Counted from the first letter of the stretch, positions 5,558 through 22,002 are shown. The stretch: DNA of 64,000 nucleotides from Sandaracinaceae bacterium (GCA_044220955.1 JBGAQA010000002.1:1-64000); one strand, 5' to 3'. Numbers and translations: made by a program. Notes: a model not told the origin generated them from the sequence alone.

Positions 5558-7053
5558 AGCCGACGTACGTGCTGCCGCTGCTGCTCGCCCTCTCGGGCTG
5601 CAGCCACCACCTCGACGTCGCCCAGATCGCGGCGCTCGACGACGCCGTCCTCGTGCTCGACCGCGGCGGGCTCGTGCGCGTCTTCCGGATCGACGACGCG
5701 AGCACCAGCGCGACCGACGTGGACCTCGCCGAGGGCGAGCCCTCGCTGCTCGCGCGACCCGGGAGCCCCGAGGAGGCCCTCGTGCTCACGCAGGGCAGGC
5801 TCGGCGACGCGCGCGAGGCGCCCGTGCCGTCCGAGCTGGTGCGGCTCGATCGCACCGGCGAGCTCGGGCGCTGGGCGTTCTCGGGCCAGTACGCCGAGGC
5901 ACGCGCCTCGCGCGACGGGCGCTACGTCGTCACGCTCTCGCCGCGCGGGCGGCTGGTGGTCGAGAACCGCGTCGAGATCGCCGACCTCACGATGGCCGCA
6001 AGCGCGGCGAACCCCGTGGCGCTCTCGCTGCGCTCGCTCGGGGGCGAATCTCCCGCCGGAGCGGAGATCTCGGGCGCGCTGCCCTGGAGCGACGGGCGGG
6101 AGCTCCGGGTCGCGGCGCTCTTCGCCGCCGGGCAGCTCAGCCTCTTCGATCTCGACGCGCCGGACGACCCGCCGGTGACCATCCCGACGACGGCCGACGC
6201 GAGCGCGGCCCAGGAGGTCCCGATCGAGGGCTTCTTCGTCGACGCCGAGCTCGTGCTGCGGACCTCGTCCGGAAGCCAGCTCCTCGTGGTGGCGCTGGTC
6301 CCGGGGACGGGCACGCACCGCTTCGACGTCGCCGTGCGCACGCTCGCGGCCTCGGCGCCCATCGTGGCCGTGGCGATCGACGCGCGGGGCAGCTCGCCGC
6401 GCGTCCTGGCCCTGACGCGCGCGTCGCTCGACGTGTTCGACCTCGAGACGGGCATGTCGGCCGCCGTCGCTCTGCCTGCCGCCTACGGCCAGATCCTGCT
6501 CTTCGACGGCCCGGCACCCGGTGACGCGACGTCGCGCCCGCGCGTCGCGCTCTACGGGGCAGCCCGCAGCATCGCCTTCGTGGACCTCGGGGATCGCCCG
6601 ACCGACGTCGCCGGCTCGTTCGTGCTCCCGCTCGCGTTCCAGCCCGACGCGGTCGTCGCCGACGCGAGCTCCGGGCGCCTCGTGGTCTTCGAGGATCTGC
6701 GGCGAACGCCGGTGGCGCTCGACGTCGCCGCGTCGGCAGGGCGCCGGCCCGTGTCGGTCGTCGACCTCTTCGACCGCTCCGCGCTCGCGCTCGAGGCGTC
6801 CGACGAGCTCAGCCGCGCGGTGGTCTCGACGGACCTGGGCGAGATGTGGGTCGCGGGCGCGGCCGGCTACGTGAATCGCTTCGACCTCGAGACCGAGCAG
6901 CAGGAGGAGCGCTGGCTCGAGCACTCGGCCGAGACGCTCCTGCCGCTCCTCGGCCCGGCGCAGCGGGTGCTGGCGTTCACGAATCCGCGCACCGGGACGT
7001 TCGCCGTCCTGCAGCACGGCGTGGGCCCGCGCGCCGTCACCGACGCCTGGTGA
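5554..7053 (+). CDS. Putative beta-propeller lipoprotein, translationally coupled to the upstream gene
   Basis: ATGA start/stop overlap at 5554-5557; MKPTYVLPLLLALSGC lipobox; beta-rich with xDL/FDL strand ends. Confidence 0.7.
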   Translation: MKPTYVLPLLLALSGCSHHLDVAQIAALDDAVLVLDRGGLVRVFRIDDASTSATDVDLAEGEPSLLARPGSPEEALVLTQGRLGDAREAPVPSELVRLDRTGELGRWAFSGQYAEARASRDGRYVVTLSPRGRLVVENRVEIADLTMAASAANPVALSLRSLGGESPAGAEISGALPWSDGRELRVAALFAAGQLSLFDLDAPDDPPVTIPTTADASAAQEVPIEGFFVDAELVLRTSSGSQLLVVALVPGTGTHRFDVAVRTLAASAPIVAVAIDARGSSPRVLALTRASLDVFDLETGMSAAVALPAAYGQILLFDGPAPGDATSRPRVALYGAARSIAFVDLGDRPTDVAGSFVLPLAFQPDAVVADASSGRLVVFEDLRRTPVALDVAASAGRRPVSVVDLFDRSALALEASDELSRAVVSTDLGEMWVAGAAGYVNRFDLETEQQEERWLEHSAETLLPLLGPAQRVLAFTNPRTGTFAVLQHGVGPRAVTDAW

Positions 7054-7091: not shown

Positions 7092-9116
7092 TCAGGGCCC
7101 GCCGATCGCGCCTGGGAGTGGGTAGCTCGTGGCCTGCAGCGGGACCTCGACGTCGACGTACGCGACCCGGTCGTGCAGGCGCTCCACGTCGAAGCCCGCG
7201 ACCTGCACGCACGCGCCGATCGCGGCCGTGGAGATCGTGCCCTCGCTCAGGTCGACCGCCGTGAGCGCCGGCGGCTCGTCGTCTCCGACGATCACGCCGC
7301 AGAACTGCGAGCGCGCGACGGCGAAGCGCTGGACGCTCAGCGAGGCGCCGCGATAGCCGGCGAGGCCATAGCCCCCGACGGGGGTCGTGCAGCCCGGGTC
7401 GAAGCAACCGGCGCGCACGTCGTCGATCGACACGTCGGTGAGCGACATCGTGCTGCGCACCACGCTCCCGGCGCCGACGACGCGTGCGTGCGCGATCGCG
7501 CCGCGCGTCAGGGAGATGAAGGCGTCGTCCTGCGCGATCGTGCCCGCCCCGAACGTTCCCTGCGCGTTGCCGAGCACGTCGGTGATGCGCACGTCCTCCG
7601 CCTCGATGCGACCGCGCAGCGAGGCGAACATGCCGACCTCGCCAGCGCGCTCGATGGAGACGCGCGCGAGCGTCGCGACCGCGTCCTCCTCGACGGACAC
7701 GCCGAAGCCGCCTCGACCCGTGGGATCGCTCGCCACGTCGCGGATGGTCACGTCCTCGAGCGCGAGGCGGCTGCCGGCGCGGCCGACCAAGAAGGCGTCG
7801 CTGGCGACGCGCGCGACGAGCGCACGGCTGACGTGGAGCGTCGCACCGTTCTGGGCGCCCGCCCCGCGCCCGAGCAGCGTGCCGCCGCCCACCAGATCGG
7901 CGAGCACGACGTCCGTCGCGGTCAGCGACGAGTCGCTCTCGCCGGTGCCCATCCCGAGGCCGATGTCGTGGATCCACGCGCGCGAGACCGTCGCGCTCGC
8001 GCCGAAGCGCACGACGAGCCCGGTCGTGAGGCTCACGGGGGTCGCGCCGTCGCGGATCGCCAGGTCGGTGAGCTCGGCGGAGGAATGATTGGCGACCGCG
8101 AACGCGTCGCCGGCGTTCGCTTCGAAGGCGACGCGCGTCAGCGCGAGGTGCGTGCCGGGGTCGTCTCCCACGACGCCGAGGGCGACGCCGCTCTGGAGAC
8201 CGACGCGGGTCCGCGCGACCAGGACGTCGTGGCCCTCGAGGCTCGCCCCGTGGCTCACGAGCATCCCGACGTCCATGCAGTCGTCGACGACGACACGATC
8301 GAGCACGATGTGGGGCTGGTTGGAGAGGCTCGTGGTCGTGCTCGCCTCGATCCCGCGACCGAACCAGCCCTCGCTCGTCGCCACCACGTGACGAAACGCG
8401 CTGCCGTGGACCTCGGCGCCTCCGCTCTCCGCCCAGAGCCCCTCGCCGCGCGCGCCGTCGACGACCACGTCGCGCACCTCGGCGCCGCCACCGCGCGTGA
8501 GCAAGCCGTAGCGCAGCGGGTGATCGAGCGCGAGGTTGCGCACGCGCGCGATGCCGTGGATCTCGACCACCGCGACGTCACCGTCGTTCGCGCGGCTGGA
8601 GGTGAGGCGCGTTCCCGAGACGCACGCGCCCCAGAGCGTGATGCCGCGATCGAGCACCAGGTCCTCGTCGTAGGCGCCCGTGTGCAGGGCGACGACGGCG
8701 TCGGCCGGCGCGGCCGCGAGCGCGGCCGTGATCGAGGAGAATGGACGCGGGCGCGTGCCGTCACCGCCCGCGGTGGCCGCGACGTCGACGTAGAGGATCG
8801 CGGCCGCGCCCGGCAGATCGCTCGGCCAGCCGTCGGCGGCGCACGCGGTCCCGACGCGCGCACACCCGGGCGTGCCGGGGAAGTGGACCTCGTCGAACGC
8901 GCACTCGCTACGCCAGCCGCCCTCCGGCCAGGGGTCGCAGACCACGGGATCGGCCCCGATCGCGCGCCAGCCGGCCGGGCAGGGGGTGAGCGTCGGCGCG
9001 GCCGGGGCAGCCGGGGACAGGACGATGCCCGCATCCGTCCCGACGGATGGCGTCGTCGTGCAAGCGAGCGCGAGCGCGGCGACCGCGACGCGGCTCGGAA
9101 GGAAGCGGGGCCTCAT
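7092..9116 (-). CDS. Lipoprotein with right-handed parallel beta-helix repeats
   Basis: ALALAC lipobox; YVD...GDGTRPRPFSSITAAL and VVALHTGAYDE (pectate-lyase-like start); ~25-aa repeats. Confidence 0.75.
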   Translation of the reverse strand: MRPRFLPSRVAVAALALACTTTPSVGTDAGIVLSPAAPAAPTLTPCPAGWRAIGADPVVCDPWPEGGWRSECAFDEVHFPGTPGCARVGTACAADGWPSDLPGAAAILYVDVAATAGGDGTRPRPFSSITAALAAAPADAVVALHTGAYDEDLVLDRGITLWGACVSGTRLTSSRANDGDVAVVEIHGIARVRNLALDHPLRYGLLTRGGGAEVRDVVVDGARGEGLWAESGGAEVHGSAFRHVVATSEGWFGRGIEASTTTSLSNQPHIVLDRVVVDDCMDVGMLVSHGASLEGHDVLVARTRVGLQSGVALGVVGDDPGTHLALTRVAFEANAGDAFAVANHSSAELTDLAIRDGATPVSLTTGLVVRFGASATVSRAWIHDIGLGMGTGESDSSLTATDVVLADLVGGGTLLGRGAGAQNGATLHVSRALVARVASDAFLVGRAGSRLALEDVTIRDVASDPTGRGGFGVSVEEDAVATLARVSIERAGEVGMFASLRGRIEAEDVRITDVLGNAQGTFGAGTIAQDDAFISLTRGAIAHARVVGAGSVVRSTMSLTDVSIDDVRAGCFDPGCTTPVGGYGLAGYRGASLSVQRFAVARSQFCGVIVGDDEPPALTAVDLSEGTISTAAIGACVQVAGFDVERLHDRVAYVDVEVPLQATSYPLPGAIGGP

Positions 9117-9229: not shown

Positions 9230-11014
9230 ATGAGGTGGCTCTCGTTCGTCGGACTCTCGGCGGGCCTCTGGCTCGCGTCTTGCGCGTCGCCGCGCCCGGC
9301 ATCGCAGGTCCTGGTGTTCGTGGACGCGCAGCCCCTGGTCCGCGGCACCGCGGCGCACGTCGTGATCGAGGTCTCGGGTGGGCACCCCGGCGAGACGTTC
9401 ACGATGTCGGGCCCGCCGCTCGAGCACCGCCCGCCGCTCGCGTGGCCCTTCGACGTGACGATCGTGCCGGCGGGCGGGGACGTGTCGCGCATCTTCGAGA
9501 TCCAGGCGACGGCCTACGATTCCGGCGAGCACCTCGTGAGCCAGACACGTCTTCGCGCAGGGTTCGTGCGAGGGGAGTCGCGACGCACGACCCTCGTCCT
9601 CGAGGACGCGTGCTTCGGTGTGTCGTGCGACGAGGGCCTGGTCTGCTCGTCGGGGCGCTGCGTGCCCTTGATGATGATGTCCGGCGACGACGCGGGCATG
9701 CCCGACGCGGGGGTGGACGGGGGAGGTACCGAGCGCTGCGCGAACGACGTGGACTGCGACGACGGGAACCTCTGCAACGGCCTCGAGCGATGCACGGCGG
9801 GCACGTGCGGAGCCGGAACACGCCTCGACTGTGACGACCACGTCGAGTGCACGCGCGACACGTGCGACGGAAACGCCTGCGTTCACGACCTCGACGACAC
9901 CCGCTGCACGTTCGACACCGGTGGCCACTGTGACCCGGTCAACGACTGCCAGTACGCGGTATGCGGTCCGACCAACTGCGTGTCGGCGGGGTGCCAGACG
10001 GCGAGGTGCCGAGGCGCGGTCTGCGTCCGGGAGTTCGCGTGCGCGACCGGCCAGAGCTGCTGCGGCACGAGCTGCGTGCCGACGGGCTGCGACGACGCCG
10101 ACCAGTGCACGACCGACTTCTGCGGGATGAGCGGGACGTGCGAGCACGTCGTCCGGACCGGCCCCTGCGACGATCACGACGTCTGCACGAGCGGTGAGCA
10201 GTGCGACCCGGCGGGCGCGTGCAGGGCGAGCAACCCGCCGATGGTCTGCGACGACGGCAATCCGTGCACGGACGACCGGTGCGATCCCGTCCGCGCCTGC
10301 GTCTCGGCGCCCAACGCGGCGGGCTGCAGCGACGGGAACCCGTGCACTCGCGACGACCTCTGTGGCGGTGGCGTGTGCGTCGCCGGCCCTCCGCCCTCGT
10401 GCGACGACGGGATCGCGTGCACGGCGGACAGCTGCGATGCGACCGGTGCATGCGCACACAGGGCCGACGACGTGATCTGCGGGGCTGGGTTTCGCTGTGA
10501 TCCGGCGCTCGGCTGCCAGCCGACCAGCGCGTGCACCATGACGAACTGCCAGCCGACGCCGGGCGCGTGCGAGATGGCCGCTTGCTCGGGCGCGACGTGC
10601 ATGCGCTCGACGACGTGCACCACCGGGACCACGTGCTGCGGCGGTGCGTGCGTGCCGACGGGATGCGACGACGGCAACCCCTGCACCGACGACCTGTGCA
10701 ACGGAGTGAGCTGCGTCCACACGAACCACACGCGCGGCTGCTCCGACGGCGACCCGTGCACGATCGGAGACCAGTGCTCGGGCGGCGCGTGCCAGGGCAT
10801 CGCGATGCCCTGCGTCGACCCGAACCCGTGCACGGACGACGTCTGCGTCGCCGGCGTCTGCGAGCATCAGCCCGTCTCCGGGGTGCCCTGCGACGACGGC
10901 AACGCCTGCACCATGGACGACCTCTGCCAGGGCGGCACCTGCTGGGGCAACTTCGGATGCTCGGGTGGGCTGCACTGCTGCGGCGGCTCGTGCGAGCCGC
11001 CGGGGTCCTGCTGA
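9230..11014 (+). CDS. Cys-rich lipoprotein with CDDGNPCTxD (Dictyostelium-type) repeats
   Basis: LASC lipobox; about ten CDDGNxCTxDxC-like repeats. Confidence 0.85.
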   Translation: MRWLSFVGLSAGLWLASCASPRPASQVLVFVDAQPLVRGTAAHVVIEVSGGHPGETFTMSGPPLEHRPPLAWPFDVTIVPAGGDVSRIFEIQATAYDSGEHLVSQTRLRAGFVRGESRRTTLVLEDACFGVSCDEGLVCSSGRCVPLMMMSGDDAGMPDAGVDGGGTERCANDVDCDDGNLCNGLERCTAGTCGAGTRLDCDDHVECTRDTCDGNACVHDLDDTRCTFDTGGHCDPVNDCQYAVCGPTNCVSAGCQTARCRGAVCVREFACATGQSCCGTSCVPTGCDDADQCTTDFCGMSGTCEHVVRTGPCDDHDVCTSGEQCDPAGACRASNPPMVCDDGNPCTDDRCDPVRACVSAPNAAGCSDGNPCTRDDLCGGGVCVAGPPPSCDDGIACTADSCDATGACAHRADDVICGAGFRCDPALGCQPTSACTMTNCQPTPGACEMAACSGATCMRSTTCTTGTTCCGGACVPTGCDDGNPCTDDLCNGVSCVHTNHTRGCSDGDPCTIGDQCSGGACQGIAMPCVDPNPCTDDVCVAGVCEHQPVSGVPCDDGNACTMDDLCQGGTCWGNFGCSGGLHCCGGSCEPPGSC

Positions 11015-11071
11015 CGCATCCGCTCGGCACGGACGTCGCCGCGTCGCTCTCGCCCTCGGCTCGCGCGCTCG

Positions 11072-13345
11072 CTACACGCTCGACGCGCGCAGCGTGACCA
11101 CGGCGACGCCGCCGCGCGTGCGCACCGCGACCGCGATCTGATCCTCGGCGCTCGCTGGGCGCCACGCGACGCTCGGGCCGTCGCCCTCGATCGCGCCCTC
11201 CGCCTCCCAGCGCGTACCGAACGACTCGCGCACGCCGGCGACGGTGACGCGCACGAGCTCGCCCTCGCGCTCGGCGCGCAGCTCGGGCGCGGGTGGCAGG
11301 CTCAGAGGCAGATCCGCCGTGCGGATCGCGCCGCGTGGCGCGCTGTCGCGCCACTGGTCGACGAGGCGCAGGCGGCGCTTGAGCGCGCCGGTCGGCAGGT
11401 ACGCGTCGTCGTCCTCGGCCTCGGCGAGCTGGACGGAGTCGTCCTTCAGCTGGTCGGCCGACGCGCCCATGTCCCAGGGGGCGGGGTCCACGACGAAGCT
11501 CGAGTCGTTGCCCGCGTCGCTCGGCACGCCCGCGTCGCGCCCCGCGTCCGGCGGCGGCGGGTCGACGACGAACCCCGAGTCCGTCGCCGCCCCGGCGTCG
11601 TTGCTCGAGTCCATCAGCTGCCCGGAGTCCTGCGGCACCGGGTCGACCACGAACGACTGCCCACACCCCTCGGTCACCGTCGCCGCCGCGGCGAGCGAGG
11701 CCCCGAGCGTCACGCTCCGCGCCAGCTTCATCAGCTTCGCGCTCGGCGCGAACTTCTCCTTCTCGCGCGGCTCCTCGGTGAGCGCCGCCATCTCGCCGTA
11801 GAGATCGTCGAGCGCCGCGTGCCACTGCCGATCGGCCGCGGACACGTCCAGCGCCAGGCGCGCGGTCAGCGACTCGATCTTCGAGCCCTCGCCGGTGCCC
11901 AGCTCCTGCACCATCTCGATCGCGCGCGAGAAGTGCTCGTACGTGTCGAGCGAGATGGCGCGCGTGAGCAGCCGGGCCCGCTCGCGCAGGCGCTCGGCCC
12001 TCGCGCCCGGGTAGAAGCGCCGCAGGACGTTGCCCGCGTAGCCGAGGCCCATGTAGCGGTTGGCGACGCCGCGCGGCGCGAAGTTGCGCTCGCGGAAGGC
12101 CGCCGAGCACACGCGGAAGAGCAGCTCCGCCGGGTCGTCCTCGATGCGGTAGTTCCAGCCGAGGTAGCTGCCGCCGAGATCCTGCTCGCGCGCGAGCTCG
12201 AGGTGCAGCGGCGTGCCGTGGTAGGGCTCCGCGCGGCAGAAGTTCACCGGGTGCTCCGCGTGGTCCCGGATGAACTCGGCGTTCTCGCGCGCGTGCTCGA
12301 TCGTCGTCTTCGGCTCGAAGACGAGCAGGTTGTAGCAGTTGAAGATCCCCGCCTCCCGGCAGCTCTTGAGCGCCTCGCGCACGTGGTTCTGCTGCGTGCC
12401 GCGCCGGAGGTGGTCGCCGCCCGACTGCGAGGCGTTCTCGACGCCGACGTAGAGCCGGATGACGCCGAGCTCGGCGAGGCTCCTGGCGAGCTCGGGCGTG
12501 ATCGTGTCGGGCCGCGCCTTGCCGACGATGCCGATCGTGCCGACGCCGAAGTCGTCGAGCGCGTCGCGGATCGCCCGCACCCGGGTGAGCGTCTGCGCTG
12601 GCGAGGGCATCGTGAAGTTGTCGTCGTGGAAGCAGAAGATGCAGGGGCCGCCGGCCCGGTGCCAGAGCAGCGCCATCTCCTCGGCGACGTTCTCCGGCGA
12701 GCGCACGCGGAAGAGGCGGCCGCCGCCGTGGTCCCGTCCGTCGCGGTAGAACGCCACGATCGAGCAGTAGCTGCACTTGCTCCAGCACCCCCGCCCGCCG
12801 ACGATCGGCACGAAGGGCACGCCCATGTGCTTGTTGTGCGGGCGATAGCGCTGCGGGAAGGGGAGCGCGTCGAGCTCGTCCGGCATGCGGCGCTCGGCGG
12901 TGCGGAACGCGACGCCGTCGTGCCCGAGCAGCGCGAGGCCCGCGACGTCGTGCAGGCCCCTGCCGCGCTCGATCGCGCGCACGAGGTCCACCACGGTCTC
13001 TTCGCCGTCGTGCAGCACCACCGAGTCGACGCCGAAGTCGCCCTCGAGCACCTCCCGGAACGCGAGCGTCGGGAACTGCGCGCCGCTCGTCACGTGCCCT
13101 CGGTAGCCGGCGCTCCGCAGCGCGCGAGAGAGGCCGAGGAACTCGTGCGCGCGGTGCTGGAACTGGATCGACATCCCGACCATCTCGGGCGCCTCGTCCA
13201 CGATGCGCCGGACGAGCGGCTCCGTGTCCTTGGCGACGTTGAACGGCAGGATGAGCGCCTCGTGGCCCGCTCGCTCCAGACAGGACGCGATGAGGCCGAG
13301 CCCCAGGTTCTCCTCGAAGTCCGCACCGATCAGGATCGCGCGCAT
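11072..13345 (-). CDS. Cobalamin-dependent (class B) radical SAM protein with a C-terminal extension carrying a lipoprotein-like signal and FVVDPxP repeats
   Basis: GGAGG RBS before ATG 13345; B12-binding N-domain (NLGLGLIASCLERAGH, VTSGAQFPT, HDGEET); RGCWSKCSYC at 12764-12787; FHDDNF and YVGVEN motifs. Confidence 0.88.
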   Translation of the reverse strand: MRAILIGADFEENLGLGLIASCLERAGHEALILPFNVAKDTEPLVRRIVDEAPEMVGMSIQFQHRAHEFLGLSRALRSAGYRGHVTSGAQFPTLAFREVLEGDFGVDSVVLHDGEETVVDLVRAIERGRGLHDVAGLALLGHDGVAFRTAERRMPDELDALPFPQRYRPHNKHMGVPFVPIVGGRGCWSKCSYCSIVAFYRDGRDHGGGRLFRVRSPENVAEEMALLWHRAGGPCIFCFHDDNFTMPSPAQTLTRVRAIRDALDDFGVGTIGIVGKARPDTITPELARSLAELGVIRLYVGVENASQSGGDHLRRGTQQNHVREALKSCREAGIFNCYNLLVFEPKTTIEHARENAEFIRDHAEHPVNFCRAEPYHGTPLHLELAREQDLGGSYLGWNYRIEDDPAELLFRVCSAAFRERNFAPRGVANRYMGLGYAGNVLRRFYPGARAERLRERARLLTRAISLDTYEHFSRAIEMVQELGTGEGSKIESLTARLALDVSAADRQWHAALDDLYGEMAALTEEPREKEKFAPSAKLMKLARSVTLGASLAAAATVTEGCGQSFVVDPVPQDSGQLMDSSNDAGAATDSGFVVDPPPPDAGRDAGVPSDAGNDSSFVVDPAPWDMGASADQLKDDSVQLAEAEDDDAYLPTGALKRRLRLVDQWRDSAPRGAIRTADLPLSLPPAPELRAEREGELVRVTVAGVRESFGTRWEAEGAIEGDGPSVAWRPASAEDQIAVAVRTRGGVAVVTLRASSV

Positions 13346-13468
13346 CGAAGCCTCCGCTTTTGGTGGGCCCAGCGTACACGCGGGACCGGTCGCCGTGCGC
13401 GAGCAGATCTCGGGCCAGCTCCGGATGGCACAGCCTGCGCCGTGTGCCCGCACCGCGCGCCTCGCGGC

Positions 13469-15421: not shown

Positions 15422-15673
15422 ATGCGCGGCCTCACGCTCCGCAACCTCGATGACACCACCCTCGGCTGGCTGCGCGAGCGCGCGGAGAGCCACGGCCGGA
15501 GCATGAACGCAGAGCTGCTCGATATCCTGCAGACGACGCGCGGCGACGAGCTCGTCGCGCGCCGGAGAGGCCCCGTCGCGGCCAGCGCGCGCCGCGCCAA
15601 GGCGCTCGGCATCCGGACGTCGCGATCGAGCGCCGACATCGCCCGCGCGATGCGAGACGCGCGGAGCAGATGA
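15422..15673 (+). CDS. FitA/Arc-like ribbon-helix-helix antitoxin
   Basis: MRGLTLRNLDD...LRERAESHGRSMNAELLDIL; ATGA overlap with PIN toxin. Confidence 0.85.
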   Translation: MRGLTLRNLDDTTLGWLRERAESHGRSMNAELLDILQTTRGDELVARRRGPVAASARRAKALGIRTSRSSADIARAMRDARSR

Positions 15674-16056
15674 CGCCCTGCGTAGTCGACGCGTCCGCCG
15701 TCGCCGCCGTGCTCTTCCGCGAGCCGGACCACGCCCTCGTGACGCTCGCGATACCGGCGGACGCGAGGCTCGTGGCACCGGCGCTCCTCCCGCTCGAGGT
15801 CGCGAACGTGGCACGAACCAAGGTGCGTCGCGGCGAGCTGGCGCGCGCCGACGCGGTGGCGATGCTGGCGGACCTCGCGCGCTGGCGCGTCCGCACGGTC
15901 TCGGTGCCGTGGGCTCGTGCGTGGAAGCTCGCGTGGGCGCACGACCTCACGATCTACGACGCTGCGTACCTGCACGTGGCGATCGCGCGCGATGCGCCCC
16001 TCGTCACGCTCGACGCCGACCTGCGCAAGGCGGCAGGCAAGCGCGCGCGCCCGTGA
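15670..16056 (+). CDS. vapC: VapC/PIN-domain toxin
   Basis: VVDASA...EVAN...TIYDAAYL...LVTLD acidic PIN residues. Confidence 0.9.
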   Translation: MTPCVVDASAVAAVLFREPDHALVTLAIPADARLVAPALLPLEVANVARTKVRRGELARADAVAMLADLARWRVRTVSVPWARAWKLAWAHDLTIYDAAYLHVAIARDAPLVTLDADLRKAAGKRARP

Positions 16057-16708: not shown

Positions 16709-16995
16709 CCCGCGCGACGCGCATGACCAGCAAGGGACAAGTCGTGATCCCGAAGGAGGCGCGTGACCGCCTCCGCTGGCGCGCGGGCGCACGGCTCGAC
16801 GTGGAGGTCGGCAGCGGCGTGGTCGTGCTCCGTGCTGCGCGCGCCAAGCAGGATCCGATCGACCGAGCGTTCGGCTTTCTCGATCGTGGCGACCCGCTCG
16901 CCGCGCTCGAAATCGAGCATCGAGACGAGATTGCCGGCGATGAGCGGCGCCGTCGTCGTGGACGCATGGGCGCTCCTCGGCCTGCTCCGCGGTGA
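16705..16995 (+). CDS. AbrB/MazE/SpoVT-family antitoxin
   Basis: MTSKGQVVIPKEARDRLRW...GARLDV signature. Confidence 0.88.
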   Translation: MTRATRMTSKGQVVIPKEARDRLRWRAGARLDVEVGSGVVVLRAARAKQDPIDRAFGFLDRGDPLAALEIEHRDEIAGDERRRRRGRMGAPRPAPR

Positions 16996-17356
16996 GCAGC
17001 CCGCCGCCGACGTCGTGCGGCGGTACCTGCGCCGCGCACGCAGCGGAAGCCTCCGCGCGTCGATGAGCTGGATCAACGTCGGCGAGGTCTACTATCGCCT
17101 CGCGCAGATCGCGGGCGCTCCGCGAGCCGACGAAGCGCTCGCCCTCGTGCGCGCGCTGCCGATCGAGCTCGTTCAGGCGCGCGACACGACGGTGCTCGAA
17201 GCGGCGCGCCTGAAAGCCAGCTACGCGCTCTCGTACGCGGACGCGTTCGCCGTCGCGACCGCGAGGCGCGCACGCGCACCGGTGCTGACCGGCGATCCCG
17301 AGATCCTGGCCCTCCCGCGCAGCGTGGTCGCCGTCCGGCGACTCGATCGAGGCTAA
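16940..17356 (+). CDS. vapC: VapC/PIN-domain toxin
   Basis: VVDAWALL...INVGEVYY...LSYADAFA...LTGDPE. Confidence 0.9.
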   Translation: MSGAVVVDAWALLGLLRGEQPAADVVRRYLRRARSGSLRASMSWINVGEVYYRLAQIAGAPRADEALALVRALPIELVQARDTTVLEAARLKASYALSYADAFAVATARRARAPVLTGDPEILALPRSVVAVRRLDRG

Positions 17357-19798: not shown

Positions 19799-21478
19799 AT
19801 GGCCGAGTACCCGTCAACGTTGGTGGAGGCGCTCGACCGTCTACCGGGCGGAGAGGCGCGGGGCTTCCGGTTCGTCACGACGGATCGGGAAGAGAGGTAC
19901 TACCCCTACGAGGCGATGCGCGCCGAGGCGCACCGGCGCGCGGCGTTCCTCGCGGCGGCGGGGATGAAGAAGGGCGACACCGTCGCGCTCGTCTGCCCCG
20001 AGAACCACGAGTTCGTCCTCACCTTCCTCGGCGCCTCGGTCGGCGGCTTCGTGCCGGTGCCGATCTTCCCGGGCGCGACGTTCAAGGTCACCGACCACTA
20101 CGTCGAGACGATCGACCACATCATGGCGGCGGCGCGCGCGCGCGTGATCGTGTGCGTGCAGAAGAACCTCGAGATCATCGAGAAGGTCAAGGAGCGGCGG
20201 CCCGACGCGATCGTCGTCGTCGCCGACCGCGACTTCGCCGGACAGGCGCCGCCCTTCTCGGCGCCCGTCGTCACGCCGGACGATCTCTGCTTCCTGCAGT
20301 TCACCTCGGGCAGCACGAGCAAGCCCAAGGGCGTGATGATCCGCCACCGGAACCTCGTGGCGAACACGACGGCGTTCCTCGGGCCGGCCGGCCTGAACCG
20401 CGTGCCAGAGGACGTCGGCGTCTCGTGGCTGCCGCTCTTCCACGACATGGGCCTCATCGGCTTCGTGCTCGGCACGCTGATCGTCGATCTGCCCGTCGTG
20501 CTCATGCCCACGCCGATGTTCGCGCGCGCTCCGCGCCTCTGGCTCGAGCTGATCACCAAGCACCGCGGCACGATCACCTACGCGCCCAACTTCGCCTACC
20601 AGCTCATCACCAAGCGCGTCAGCGACAAGGATCTCTCCACGCTCGACCTGAGCACGCTGAGGGTCGCGGGCTGCGGCGCCGAGCCGATCCGAGCGCGGAC
20701 GCTGATCGAGTTCGGCGAGAAGTTCTCCCGCTGCGGCTTCGATCCCAAGGCGCTCCTGCCGAGCTACGGCATGGCCGAGAGCTGCCTCGCGATCACCTTC
20801 CACCGGCGCGGCACGCCGATGGTCGTCGACCGCGTCGACCCCGCGCAGATGAAGCTCGGCAAGGCCGTGGCATCGACCGCGCCCGACGCCCTCGAGCTCG
20901 TCGGCTGCGGGATCCCCTTCCCGGGCCACGCGATCCGGATCGCCGGCGAGAACGGCGAGGCGCTCGGCGAGCGCGAGGTCGGCGAGATCTGGAGCCGCGG
21001 CCCCAGCGTGAACGACGGCTACTACGAGAACGCCGAGGCCACGGCCGAGTCCTTCGCGGGCGGCTGGCTCAAGAGCGGCGACCTCGGCTACTTCACGGGG
21101 AGCTCGCCCGAGACGGGCGAGCTCTTCATCTGCGGCCGCAAGAAGGACCTCATCATCGTCAACGGCGCGAACCACTACCCGCAGGACATCGAGTGGGTCG
21201 TGGGCGACATCGAGGGCGTGCGCCGCGGCAACGTGGTCGCCTTCTCGACGATGAAGGACGGAATCGAGCAGCTCGTGATCGCCGCCGAGGGCAACTCGGG
21301 CGACGCGCCGCGGCTGCGCGACGAGATCACCAAGAAGGTGAGCGAGAACTTCGGCCTGACGCCGTCGAGCGTGTCGATCTGCCCGGTCGGCGCGCTCCCC
21401 AAGACGTCGAGCGGCAAGGCGCAGCGGCGCAAGACGAAGTCGATGTGGGAGTCCGGTGAGCTGGACTCCCACGCCTGA
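19799..21478 (+). CDS. Fatty acyl-AMP ligase (FAAL)
   Basis: FLQFTSGSTSKPKGV, SWLPLFHDMGLIG, SYGMAE, SGDLG, GRKKDLIIVNGANHYPQDIE, PKTSSGK. Confidence 0.9.
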   Translation: MAEYPSTLVEALDRLPGGEARGFRFVTTDREERYYPYEAMRAEAHRRAAFLAAAGMKKGDTVALVCPENHEFVLTFLGASVGGFVPVPIFPGATFKVTDHYVETIDHIMAAARARVIVCVQKNLEIIEKVKERRPDAIVVVADRDFAGQAPPFSAPVVTPDDLCFLQFTSGSTSKPKGVMIRHRNLVANTTAFLGPAGLNRVPEDVGVSWLPLFHDMGLIGFVLGTLIVDLPVVLMPTPMFARAPRLWLELITKHRGTITYAPNFAYQLITKRVSDKDLSTLDLSTLRVAGCGAEPIRARTLIEFGEKFSRCGFDPKALLPSYGMAESCLAITFHRRGTPMVVDRVDPAQMKLGKAVASTAPDALELVGCGIPFPGHAIRIAGENGEALGEREVGEIWSRGPSVNDGYYENAEATAESFAGGWLKSGDLGYFTGSSPETGELFICGRKKDLIIVNGANHYPQDIEWVVGDIEGVRRGNVVAFSTMKDGIEQLVIAAEGNSGDAPRLRDEITKKVSENFGLTPSSVSICPVGALPKTSSGKAQRRKTKSMWESGELDSHA

Positions 21479-21506
21479 AGTTCACGGTTGAGATGGAGAA
21501 ACGACG

Positions 21507-21752
21507 ATGACCCGGCCCGAGCTGATTCAGATCTTCCAGAAGATGGCGAGCGAGATCGCGGAGAAGGACTTCTCCGGCGTGAAGGAAGAGGCGACCATCG
21601 CCTCGCTCGGCATCGACTCGCTCGGCATGCTCGAGCTCGTCGGCGAGATGGAGCGCCAGCTCGGCGTGCAGATCCCCGACGAGCAGCTCGTCGGCATCCA
21701 GTCGGTCAAGCAGCTCCTCGACCTGGTCGAGAAGCGCGCGCAGATGAAGTGA
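21507..21752 (+). CDS. Acyl carrier protein 1
   Basis: LGIDSLGMLEL phosphopantetheine motif; 81 aa, acidic. Confidence 0.9.
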   Translation: MTRPELIQIFQKMASEIAEKDFSGVKEEATIASLGIDSLGMLELVGEMERQLGVQIPDEQLVGIQSVKQLLDLVEKRAQMK

Positions 21753-21759
21753 GGACCCC

Positions 21760-22002
21760 ATGAGCGACCAGGATCTCAAGGAGAAGCTGCGCGCGATCAT
21801 CGCCGAGGTGAGCGAGGTCGACGAGATCCCGGACGAGACGCCGTTCAAGGACCTCGGCATCGACTCCATGATGGCGATCGAGATCGTCGCGGAGATCGAG
21901 CGCACCTACAAGATGTCGGTCCCCGAGGACGACCTGAAGAAGCTGACGAACTTCACGGCGGTCTACACGCTCGTGAAGGACAAGCTCGGAGCCGCGGCCT
22001 GA
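21760..22002 (+). CDS. Acyl carrier protein 2
   Basis: LGIDSMMAIEI motif; GAGGA RBS. Confidence 0.9.
   Translation: MSDQDLKEKLRAIIAEVSEVDEIPDETPFKDLGIDSMMAIEIVAEIERTYKMSVPEDDLKKLTNFTAVYTLVKDKLGAAA

Follow-up and report, generated by a model that had tools for sequence, protein, structure and literature searches.

A radical SAM enzyme that depends on B12, joined to a lipoprotein-like tail with acidic-centred repeats: a candidate maturase fused to its own substrate

Gene and protein layout

A 64,000-nucleotide stretch of DNA from a Sandaracinaceae bacterium (GCA_044220955.1, JBGAQA010000002.1:1-64000), here called the window, carries on its minus strand a gene, P0001 (11072..13345), whose 757 amino acids, read without a stop, join a B12 (cobalamin)-dependent radical S-adenosylmethionine (SAM) enzyme to a lipoprotein-like tail. 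The features of the gene described below all lie on that strand, and a Shine-Dalgarno-like GGAGG (13351..13355) stands ahead of the ATG. The protein begins with a cobalamin-binding domain (residues 12-121, 12983..13312; PF02310, E 4.9e-15, 55.9 bits against a cut-off of 32.1), which also aligns with OxsB and TsrM. This is followed by a radical SAM domain (residues 183-359, 12269..12799; PF04055, 61.3 bits against 29.5), whose CxxxCxxC (C187-C191-C194, 12764..12787) has all three Cys in 198 of 198 enzymes compared. PF02310 and PF04055 are the only Pfam matches in P0001, and a backbone N-methyltransferase domain is not among them. A helical bundle (residues 404-524, 11774..12136) leads, still in one frame, to an internal Ala-rich helix resembling a lipoprotein signal (residues 536-561, 11663..11740), which ends in TEG-C561. 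This order of parts agrees with an original prediction made from the sequence alone, including the positions of Met539 (11731) and Cys561 (11665-11663).

Beyond the Cys come three repeats, FVVDPVP (D568, 11633..11653), FVVDPPPP (D595, 11549..11572) and FVVDPAPW (D620, 11474..11497). These had been placed correctly, but the strings quoted for them started one codon outside their coordinates, which begin at Phe; the synonymous codons do vary from copy to copy, as had been remarked. A conserved segment, DQWRD...DLPL..PP (residues 663-685, 11291..11359), is a possible docking element, and a D.LPL remnant of it stands ahead of the end domain in several of the separately encoded tails (split partners) discussed below. 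The protein closes with a seven-stranded beta-sandwich of PKD/Ig-like type (residues 688-753, 11087..11284), the beta-rich domain of about 70 residues that had been foreseen.

Structure was predicted with AlphaFold2. Of the 120 proteins listed, 111 went into the alignment, those that were partial, frameshifted or near-duplicates being left out. The model has a mean predicted local distance difference test (pLDDT) score of 86 and a predicted template modelling score of 0.84, and places the bundle at about 404-524, the signal helix at 536-558, disorder at 558-642 and the seven strands at 688-753. The signal helix and the end domain are confident; the repeat region, with pLDDT below 50, is predicted to be disordered. 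In a structure search with VIA-align, the top match of the end domain was the PKD1 domain 4l9d (Z 7.5, root-mean-square deviation 2.8, 74 residues aligned), a middling match that may reflect only a shared common arrangement. The PKD/Ig-like sandwich fold is frequent in exported proteins. The end domain also gave weak hidden Markov model matches to the split partners L139, L154 and L133, and an ESM Atlas search with the P0001 tail returned no usable match.

There is no stop or frameshift between enzyme and tail. Logan contigs from two separate studies cross the junction with zero gaps or indels, one (X1 record 2) spanning 11229-11993 with 0 differences and the other (X2 record 25) spanning 11000-12074 with 3; the fusion is not an assembly artefact. 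Among metagenomes, the top holders of the gene are activated sludge and bioreactor samples.

Conservation of the fusion and its motif

A first homologue search yielded 811 proteins out of 8000 candidates that were scored. The best 119, P0001 aside, share 50-87% identity with it and keep the fusion; where named, they are proteins of Sandaracinaceae, Polyangiaceae or Deltaproteobacteria metagenome-assembled genomes. With P0001 counted, 118 of the 120 best homologues carry 2-8 copies of D-[PAMC]-[PAVLM]-P past residue 540, so that VVDPxP is conserved with variable copy number, as the original prediction required. The motif is not centred on Val. In anchor-free counts, the X of [VAI]-X-P-[PAVL]-P is Asp in 243 of the 270 instances printed, and the X of X-M-[AIV]-[AP] is Glu in 119 of 129; consequently, the acidic residue is the fixed position of the motif.

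Within the same genome, where 6390 open reading frames (ORFs) were called heuristically, at least two copies of the strict motif occur only in the P0001 gene and in a paralogue (G000:C88:65458-67854, L034). This paralogue has the same layout and is 54% identical over the enzyme, and its tail holds at least seven DP[PAV]P copies separated by Pro/Thr-rich linkers, which argues that the D-A-G linkers of P0001 are not the conserved part. It lies directly downstream of genes named by eye as ftsA- and ftsZ-like. Matches at E <=1e-20 were found in 17 of 41 related genomes, and at E <=1e-60 in 36 of 301 genomes of a phylum sample. A search of shorter proteins with the tail gave 17 matches, of which the 16 examined were truncated or frameshifted pieces of fusions, with no clear stand-alone gene. 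The motif strings occur in none of the papers searched, and the titles and abstract openings found by topic give no description of the family, in a coverage that takes in few subscription papers. The fused family of B12 radical SAM enzyme and lipoprotein tail is real and conserved, and undescribed in the literature searched.

The wider family was sampled with a profile search over 1.84 billion representatives, of which the best 150 were examined. The order is again enzyme, basic stretch, Ala-rich hydrophobic helix and usually Cys, after which come unrelated bodies: TonB C-terminal, choice-of-anchor D and CglD/MtsD-like repeats by NCBIfam, and OmpA-like, PEGA-like and ankyrin-like ones by eye. 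Most of these tails have acidic-centred motifs (D-P-x-P, D-[AMC]-x-P, DGG[FA]P, E-M-[AIV]-[AP], EAAP or EYAA), and thus a short acidic motif is kept while the passenger bodies differ. Among 73 fused core loci, 67 have the hydrophobic stretch and 63 the motif; five of the ten motif misses belong to one subfamily, marked by an extension of 71-83 residues and a partner that is encoded separately. By record titles, members occur across Myxococcota, Gemmatimonadota, Planctomycetota, Verrucomicrobiota, Lentisphaerota, Fibrobacterota, Thermodesulfobacteriota and Pseudomonadota, and in one Bathyarchaeota bin. A distant clade (L025, L026, L084-L088; 298-364 bits) has the same internal signal and ends in [CV]PE[YFH][VA]I[AI]E-stop or C[WF]VA-stop behind a small Cys-containing domain.

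Enzyme and tail as neighbouring genes

The original prediction had also asked whether some genomes divide enzyme and tail between two genes, and this is the case, in more distant subfamilies only. From genome searches and 80 of 179 confirmed loci, 136 distinct near-complete enzymes were kept (84 fused, 48 tail-less and 4 cut); the tail-less core set consists of 46 enzymes above 550 bits. Tail-less relatives have their C-terminus shortly past the helical bundle. By a fixed rule set on the fused tails, an adjoining gene with both signal and motif was found for 31 of the 46 tail-less enzymes, compared with 10 of 238 other genes at the same loci; the rule errs both ways, and 3 of the 31 point to the wrong neighbour. 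By eye, and with a wider motif, a partner is present for 42 of the 46, at gaps of -29 to +72 bases, with a 4-base overlap in 15 of the 42.

Split partners nearly always carry the motif behind a signal peptide. In many, a single motif lies about 7-8 residues past the lipobox Cys and a folded domain follows. Examples are ASAC...YMVVDPLPPP (partner of L023), GGC...IIAEMAP with a similar end domain (partner of L022) and, in Gemmatimonadota, LSNC...GAVDPPPP. At L173, in a bin titled Propionivibrio, the partner is by eye an OmpA-like lipoprotein with VCDPLPP ahead of the domain.

Geomonas oryzae S43 and four related loci have, next to the enzyme, a gene whose protein lacks a signal and repeats FRPPPEPAH, and the partner in an archaeal bin has WxEPAH. 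Signal-less partners with repeated FRPPPEPAH are those at L182 (the S43 locus; 5845-6564), L159, L160, L163, L148 and L179. Because this Geomonas-type subfamily pairs the enzyme with a signal-less, cytoplasmic EPAH-repeat protein, it is the enzyme that the motif follows and not the route of export. The enzymes of these loci share a conserved C-terminal extension of 70-80 residues. The partners of L160 and L163 also hold LNPQPLPP, GPIPSPW, NPDPVPW and DPQPSPW segments, which are possibly further modification sites.

A FastTree tree of 198 dereplicated enzymes has at least 6 switches between the fused and the split state (with shuffled labels, 39 on average and 32 at the fewest), and 6-7 between the Asp and Glu types of the motif (shuffled mean 56), some of the type labels being noisy. 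Since kin share labels, the tree shows repeated fusion or fission rather than proven co-evolution, and the 6-7 changes of type reflect kinship as much as co-evolution.

The internal signal and export

Cys561 is kept in 110 of the 111 aligned rows, with Gly, Ala or Ser before it. A hydrophobic stretch is present in 146 of 151 fused tails, with Cys in 129, and split partners have both stretch and Cys in 32 of 39 cases. The signals, whether fused or split, are 37-39% Ala, and their median Kyte-Doolittle values are 2.0 (fused) and 1.78 (split) compared with 2.36 for 423 lipoprotein signals of the genome itself. Weakly hydrophobic signals tend toward post-translational export. Consequently, the weak hydrophobicity seen here favours such export and would leave time for modification in the cytoplasm. 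The genome has an lspA that scores over its cut-off and five lgt-like genes that score below theirs (on C267, C299, C236, C40 and C279; the one on C40 adjoins lspA), as well as several hundred lipobox genes. Export by the twin-arginine (Tat) system as a general route was considered and rejected: the loose twin-arginine pattern is found in 16 of 146 signals of fused forms and 8 of 36 of split forms versus 40 of 423 genome lipoproteins, and the strict pattern in 1 signal, together with one TIGR01409 match (P0203).

The original prediction had pointed to an ATG at 11731 at the head of the signal. As an internal start this Met is not conserved. Of 42 fused loci, 3 have a start codon and a Shine-Dalgarno sequence ahead of the internal signal, which is the background rate (7%), whereas the true starts score 35 of 42. 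One polypeptide is made, with no internal start.

Among the 532 neighbours of 99 loci within 3.5 kb, no protease or peptidase and no transporter recurs, although a protease could be encoded at a distance. A conserved third gene was likewise sought and rejected, the recurrent clusters being the partner genes, Ser/Thr kinases, ATP-binding cassette ATPases and sigma factors. The kinase that lies upstream of P0001 in the window is not a conserved neighbour of the enzyme.

The enzyme and its relatives

By its two domains, its CxxxCxxC and a G-x-S motif, P0001 is assigned to class B, the cobalamin-dependent radical SAM enzymes. The curated NCBIfam B12 radical SAM families scored were ApyD (NF050148), TIGR03975, MgmA (TIGR04014), HpnJ, HpnR, BchE, TsrM and ArsL, and P0001 and 10 relatives fell far below every cut-off. 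The best solved relatives are OxsB, MgmA, AprD4, TsrM, CysS and TokK. Pfam gives no match in P0001 to a RiPP (peptide made by the ribosome and modified after translation) recognition element or PqqD-like domain; the helical bundle was not searched alone.

The downstream cobalamin motif of P0001 reads G57-M-S59-I-Q61-F62-Q63, with G57 in 195 and S59 in 176 of the 198 enzymes, and position 63 is Gln in 127 and Thr in 67. The corresponding motifs are reported as G-x-S-x-N in OxsB, G-x-T-x-R in TsrM and A-x-S-x-Y-x-W in TokK (PMC9204698), so the S-x-Y-x-W lower-axial motif of TokK-type radical methylases is absent from P0001. However, TokK is reported to tolerate replacement of this Trp, W76, by Phe, Ala or His (PMC9204698), and for this reason the missing Trp is weak evidence on function; comparison of the pocket motifs makes no decision between methylase and non-methylase. 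Family-invariant residues in or just after the radical SAM domain include H240, D241, K276, R278, R297, E303, N368, R371, E373 and Y375 (198 enzymes). Seven positions (K276, R278, R297, R371, E373, Y375 and R420) are 96-99% conserved and, judged by sequence position, could bind a carboxylate. Tyr299, present in 84 of 98 D-type and 0 of 74 E-type enzymes, was considered as an Asp-specificity residue; independent pairs do not support this, and it is a lead only.

Comparison with known systems

DAG-RiPPs, RiPP-lipoprotein hybrids such as DybA/DybH and NedA/NedBC, are described as precursors with a signal peptidase II (SPII) signal, whose motif is modified in the cytoplasm before the protein is lipidated and exported; the motif may belong to a small peptide or to a large secreted protein, and signal peptidase I variants exist (PMC13056109). 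The likeness to P0001 lies in a co-encoded cytoplasmic enzyme and a conserved short motif. The differences are that those systems use MNIO enzymes on Cys motifs (PMC13056109), while here a B12 radical SAM enzyme goes with an acidic-centred motif and the signal is often embedded in an enzyme fusion, at a depth of about 540 residues. The main text of PMC13056109 has zero mentions of "radical", "B12", "cobalamin" or "fused". Borosins of types I-III (OphMA) are reported to be auto-modifying enzyme-precursor fusions, with related systems split in two genes, but to use a backbone N-methyltransferase and to have the core cut out (PMC11285071). P0001 has a borosin-like precursor-enzyme fusion, with the tail as putative substrate, but its enzyme is of the radical B12 kind and is separated from the substrate by an export signal. 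DAG-RiPPs are thus the closest known kind in working and borosins in build, and the defining enzyme of both is missing here.

PoyC and the bottromycin enzymes are B12 radical SAM C-methyltransferases that act on ribosomal peptides. The RiPP C-methyltransferases of the ApyD and TIGR03975 families likewise combine B12-binding and radical SAM domains and have ribosomal peptide substrates, but P0001 scores 67 against a cut-off of 750 bits (NF050148) and 57 against 282 bits (TIGR03975), and the candidate substrates here are lipoproteins or larger proteins. MgmA, or QCMT (9ccb), is a class B enzyme reported to methylate the C-alpha of a Gln in methyl-coenzyme M reductase, that is, a residue of a protein (PMC9401015). 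It is the second-best solved relative by sequence (E 8e-23) and, like P0001, has Gln at S+2; in contrast, it is archaeal and unfused, its substrate is cytoplasmic, and P0001 scores 46 bits against the TIGR04014 cut-off of 360. OxsB (5ul2), the top match by sequence (E 5e-32) and by fold, shares the B12 domain, the radical SAM barrel and the helical bundle, but it is a small-molecule ring-contraction enzyme with about 16% identity to P0001.

A model and its alternatives

Taken together, these results have led to the hypothesis that P0001 unites, covalently and in one polypeptide, a maturase and the substrate on which it acts. In this model, the N-terminal part would fold in the cytoplasm and hold there its cobalamin and a [4Fe-4S] cluster. 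The signal, Ala-rich and weakly hydrophobic, would delay export and might double as a leader bound by the helical bundle. The disordered repeats would be fed into the active site, where 5'-deoxyadenosyl-radical chemistry would modify each [V/M/F]VV-D-P-x-P. The signal would then act as an internal signal-anchor: the tail would be exported, Lgt would lipidate Cys561, and Lsp would cleave. The products would be a modified lipoprotein, composed of the repeats and the PKD/Ig-like domain, and an enzyme that stays on the cytoplasmic side. In split members, the enzyme would work in trans, on the protein encoded by its neighbouring gene. DAG-RiPPs offer a precedent for a modification made in the cytoplasm and then followed by SPII lipidation (PMC13056109).

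It is probable, on the sequence evidence, that the enzyme has the tail as its substrate and that the tail ends up as an exported lipoprotein. The modification is somewhat more apt to be a C-methylation than anything else, and there is a slight preference for the Asp itself as the modified site, either at C-alpha as in MgmA or on the side chain, with the adjoining Pro or Val as alternatives. C-alpha methylation of the MgmA kind would fit Asp and Glu alike. The self-modifying fusion of the original prediction is partly supported: copy number and split genes agree with it, the motif is centred on the acidic residue and not on Val, release of peptides is unlikely, and the signal has no separate start.

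Several observations weigh against this model. Four of the 46 tail-less enzymes (L109, L110, L114 and L169) have no motif partner nearby, and many of the split loci are kin (the tree has 10 rows from Gemmatimonadota). In P0001 the lipobox, TEGC, is non-canonical at -3/-2. The motif expression is loose and fits 70 of 616 lipobox genes of the genome itself within 120 amino acids. Where TokK has Tyr and Trp, at S+2 and S+4, the cobalamin motif of P0001 has Gln, and the top solved relative by sequence, OxsB, is a non-methylase. Finally, in 5 independent pairs Tyr299 and Asp go the same way in 0.8 and the opposite way in 0 (p = 1).

The most serious alternative, though a rather unlikely one, keeps the same substrate but replaces methylation by an oxidation without methyl transfer, of the OxsB or BchE type, such as a cross-link within D-P-x-P or an oxidative decarboxylation (Asp to dehydroalanine, Glu to vinylglycine). 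It concerns only the modification step, and its probability is contained in that of the preferred explanation. The OxsB match, which extends to the helical bundle, the lack of Trp at S+4 in the family, and the near-invariant K276, R278, R297, R371 and R420, whose sequence positions alone suggest that they could hold a carboxylate, are consistent with it, and non-methylase members of the class have been reported (PMC13331322). However, the identity to OxsB is low (15-16%), the other solved B12-domain relatives (MgmA, TsrM, CysS and TokK) are methylases, and the tolerance of TokK at W76 weakens the argument from Trp.

It is also unlikely that the motif serves only as a tag for recognition or docking, or the helix only as a membrane anchor. 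The target of the enzyme would then be another one, such as a membrane lipid, a small molecule or the lipoyl-Cys region, and the tail would be a co-regulated lipoprotein. A family-level similarity to the lipid-modifying HpnJ and HpnR, far below cut-off, would fit this, as would the four partnerless enzymes and the frequency of Pro/Asp-rich linkers in lipoproteins of the same genome. Nevertheless, an anchor leaves up to 8 copies of an invariant-acidic motif unexplained, and the motif is kept both in separately encoded partners and in the signal-less EPAH-repeat proteins.

A classical multi-core RiPP, in which the modified repeats would be excised as small peptides as in borosins, is quite improbable. 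Variable copy number, D-A/S-G spacers and the enzyme-precursor fusion known from borosin types I-III (PMC11285071) recall such a system, but no protease or exporter recurs at the 99 loci, the Cys is conserved, and many partners have a single motif ahead of a large folded domain. The best reading of the sequences is therefore a modified lipoprotein and not released peptides, the original prediction having allowed for both. That the gene is an artefact, or two genes read as one because a stop was lost or because translation begins internally at Met 11731, is barely credible and largely refuted: a Met does lie at the expected distance in P0001, and 15-32 residues ahead of the Cys in 35 of the 111 rows (against 23% in background windows), but the start signals there are at background, the junction is bridged in two studies, and the in-frame fusion recurs in more than 100 homologues.

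Returning to the maturase model, a broader version is more tentative and falls somewhat short of an even chance. In it, a B12 radical enzyme would install an unnatural residue (alpha-methyl-Asp or alpha-methyl-Glu, or the product of a decarboxylation or a cross-link) at a portable acidic tag of 4-7 residues, across many phyla and passengers, namely many unrelated surface lipoproteins and some cytoplasmic proteins. Its commonest form would be a single-turnover polyprotein in which the buried signal serves first as a leader bound by the enzyme and then as the export signal with the Lgt/Lsp cut site.

If the model is correct, RiPP-lipoprotein hybrids would extend from MNIO enzymes to cobalamin radical chemistry, and surface proteins of Myxococcota, Gemmatimonadota, Planctomycetota and others would carry an unknown post-translational modification. 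Furthermore, the lipoprotein pathway would process a signal about 540 residues inside a cytoplasmic metalloenzyme. Since the tag is short and found on unrelated passengers, the enzyme could then serve as a portable tool for site-specific protein modification. Genomics has named a candidate substrate, and one enzyme/partner pair comes from Geomonas oryzae S43, so a direct test is possible.

Other genes at these loci and in the window

At L109 (2409-3458) and L110, the tail-less enzymes are coupled to a gene that by eye is FlhB-like and then to a priA-like gene. L107 carries a tandem pair of tail-less B12 radical SAM genes from another subfamily, and after them comes a gene of 202 amino acids with a leader-like N-terminus.

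In the window itself, several lipoproteins are encoded downstream of P0001 (125-11014), among them one that is Cys-rich and has Dicty_CTDC repeats (9230-11014) and one with a beta-helix (7092-9116); these are not conserved neighbours of the enzyme. On the plus strand, a small gene followed by a gene that by eye is PIN-like (15422-16056) and an ORF with a Pfam PIN domain (16763-17356) are probable toxin-antitoxin modules. Farther along on the same strand, an AMP-binding enzyme resembling fatty acyl-AMP ligases precedes two acyl-carrier-like genes (19799-22002).

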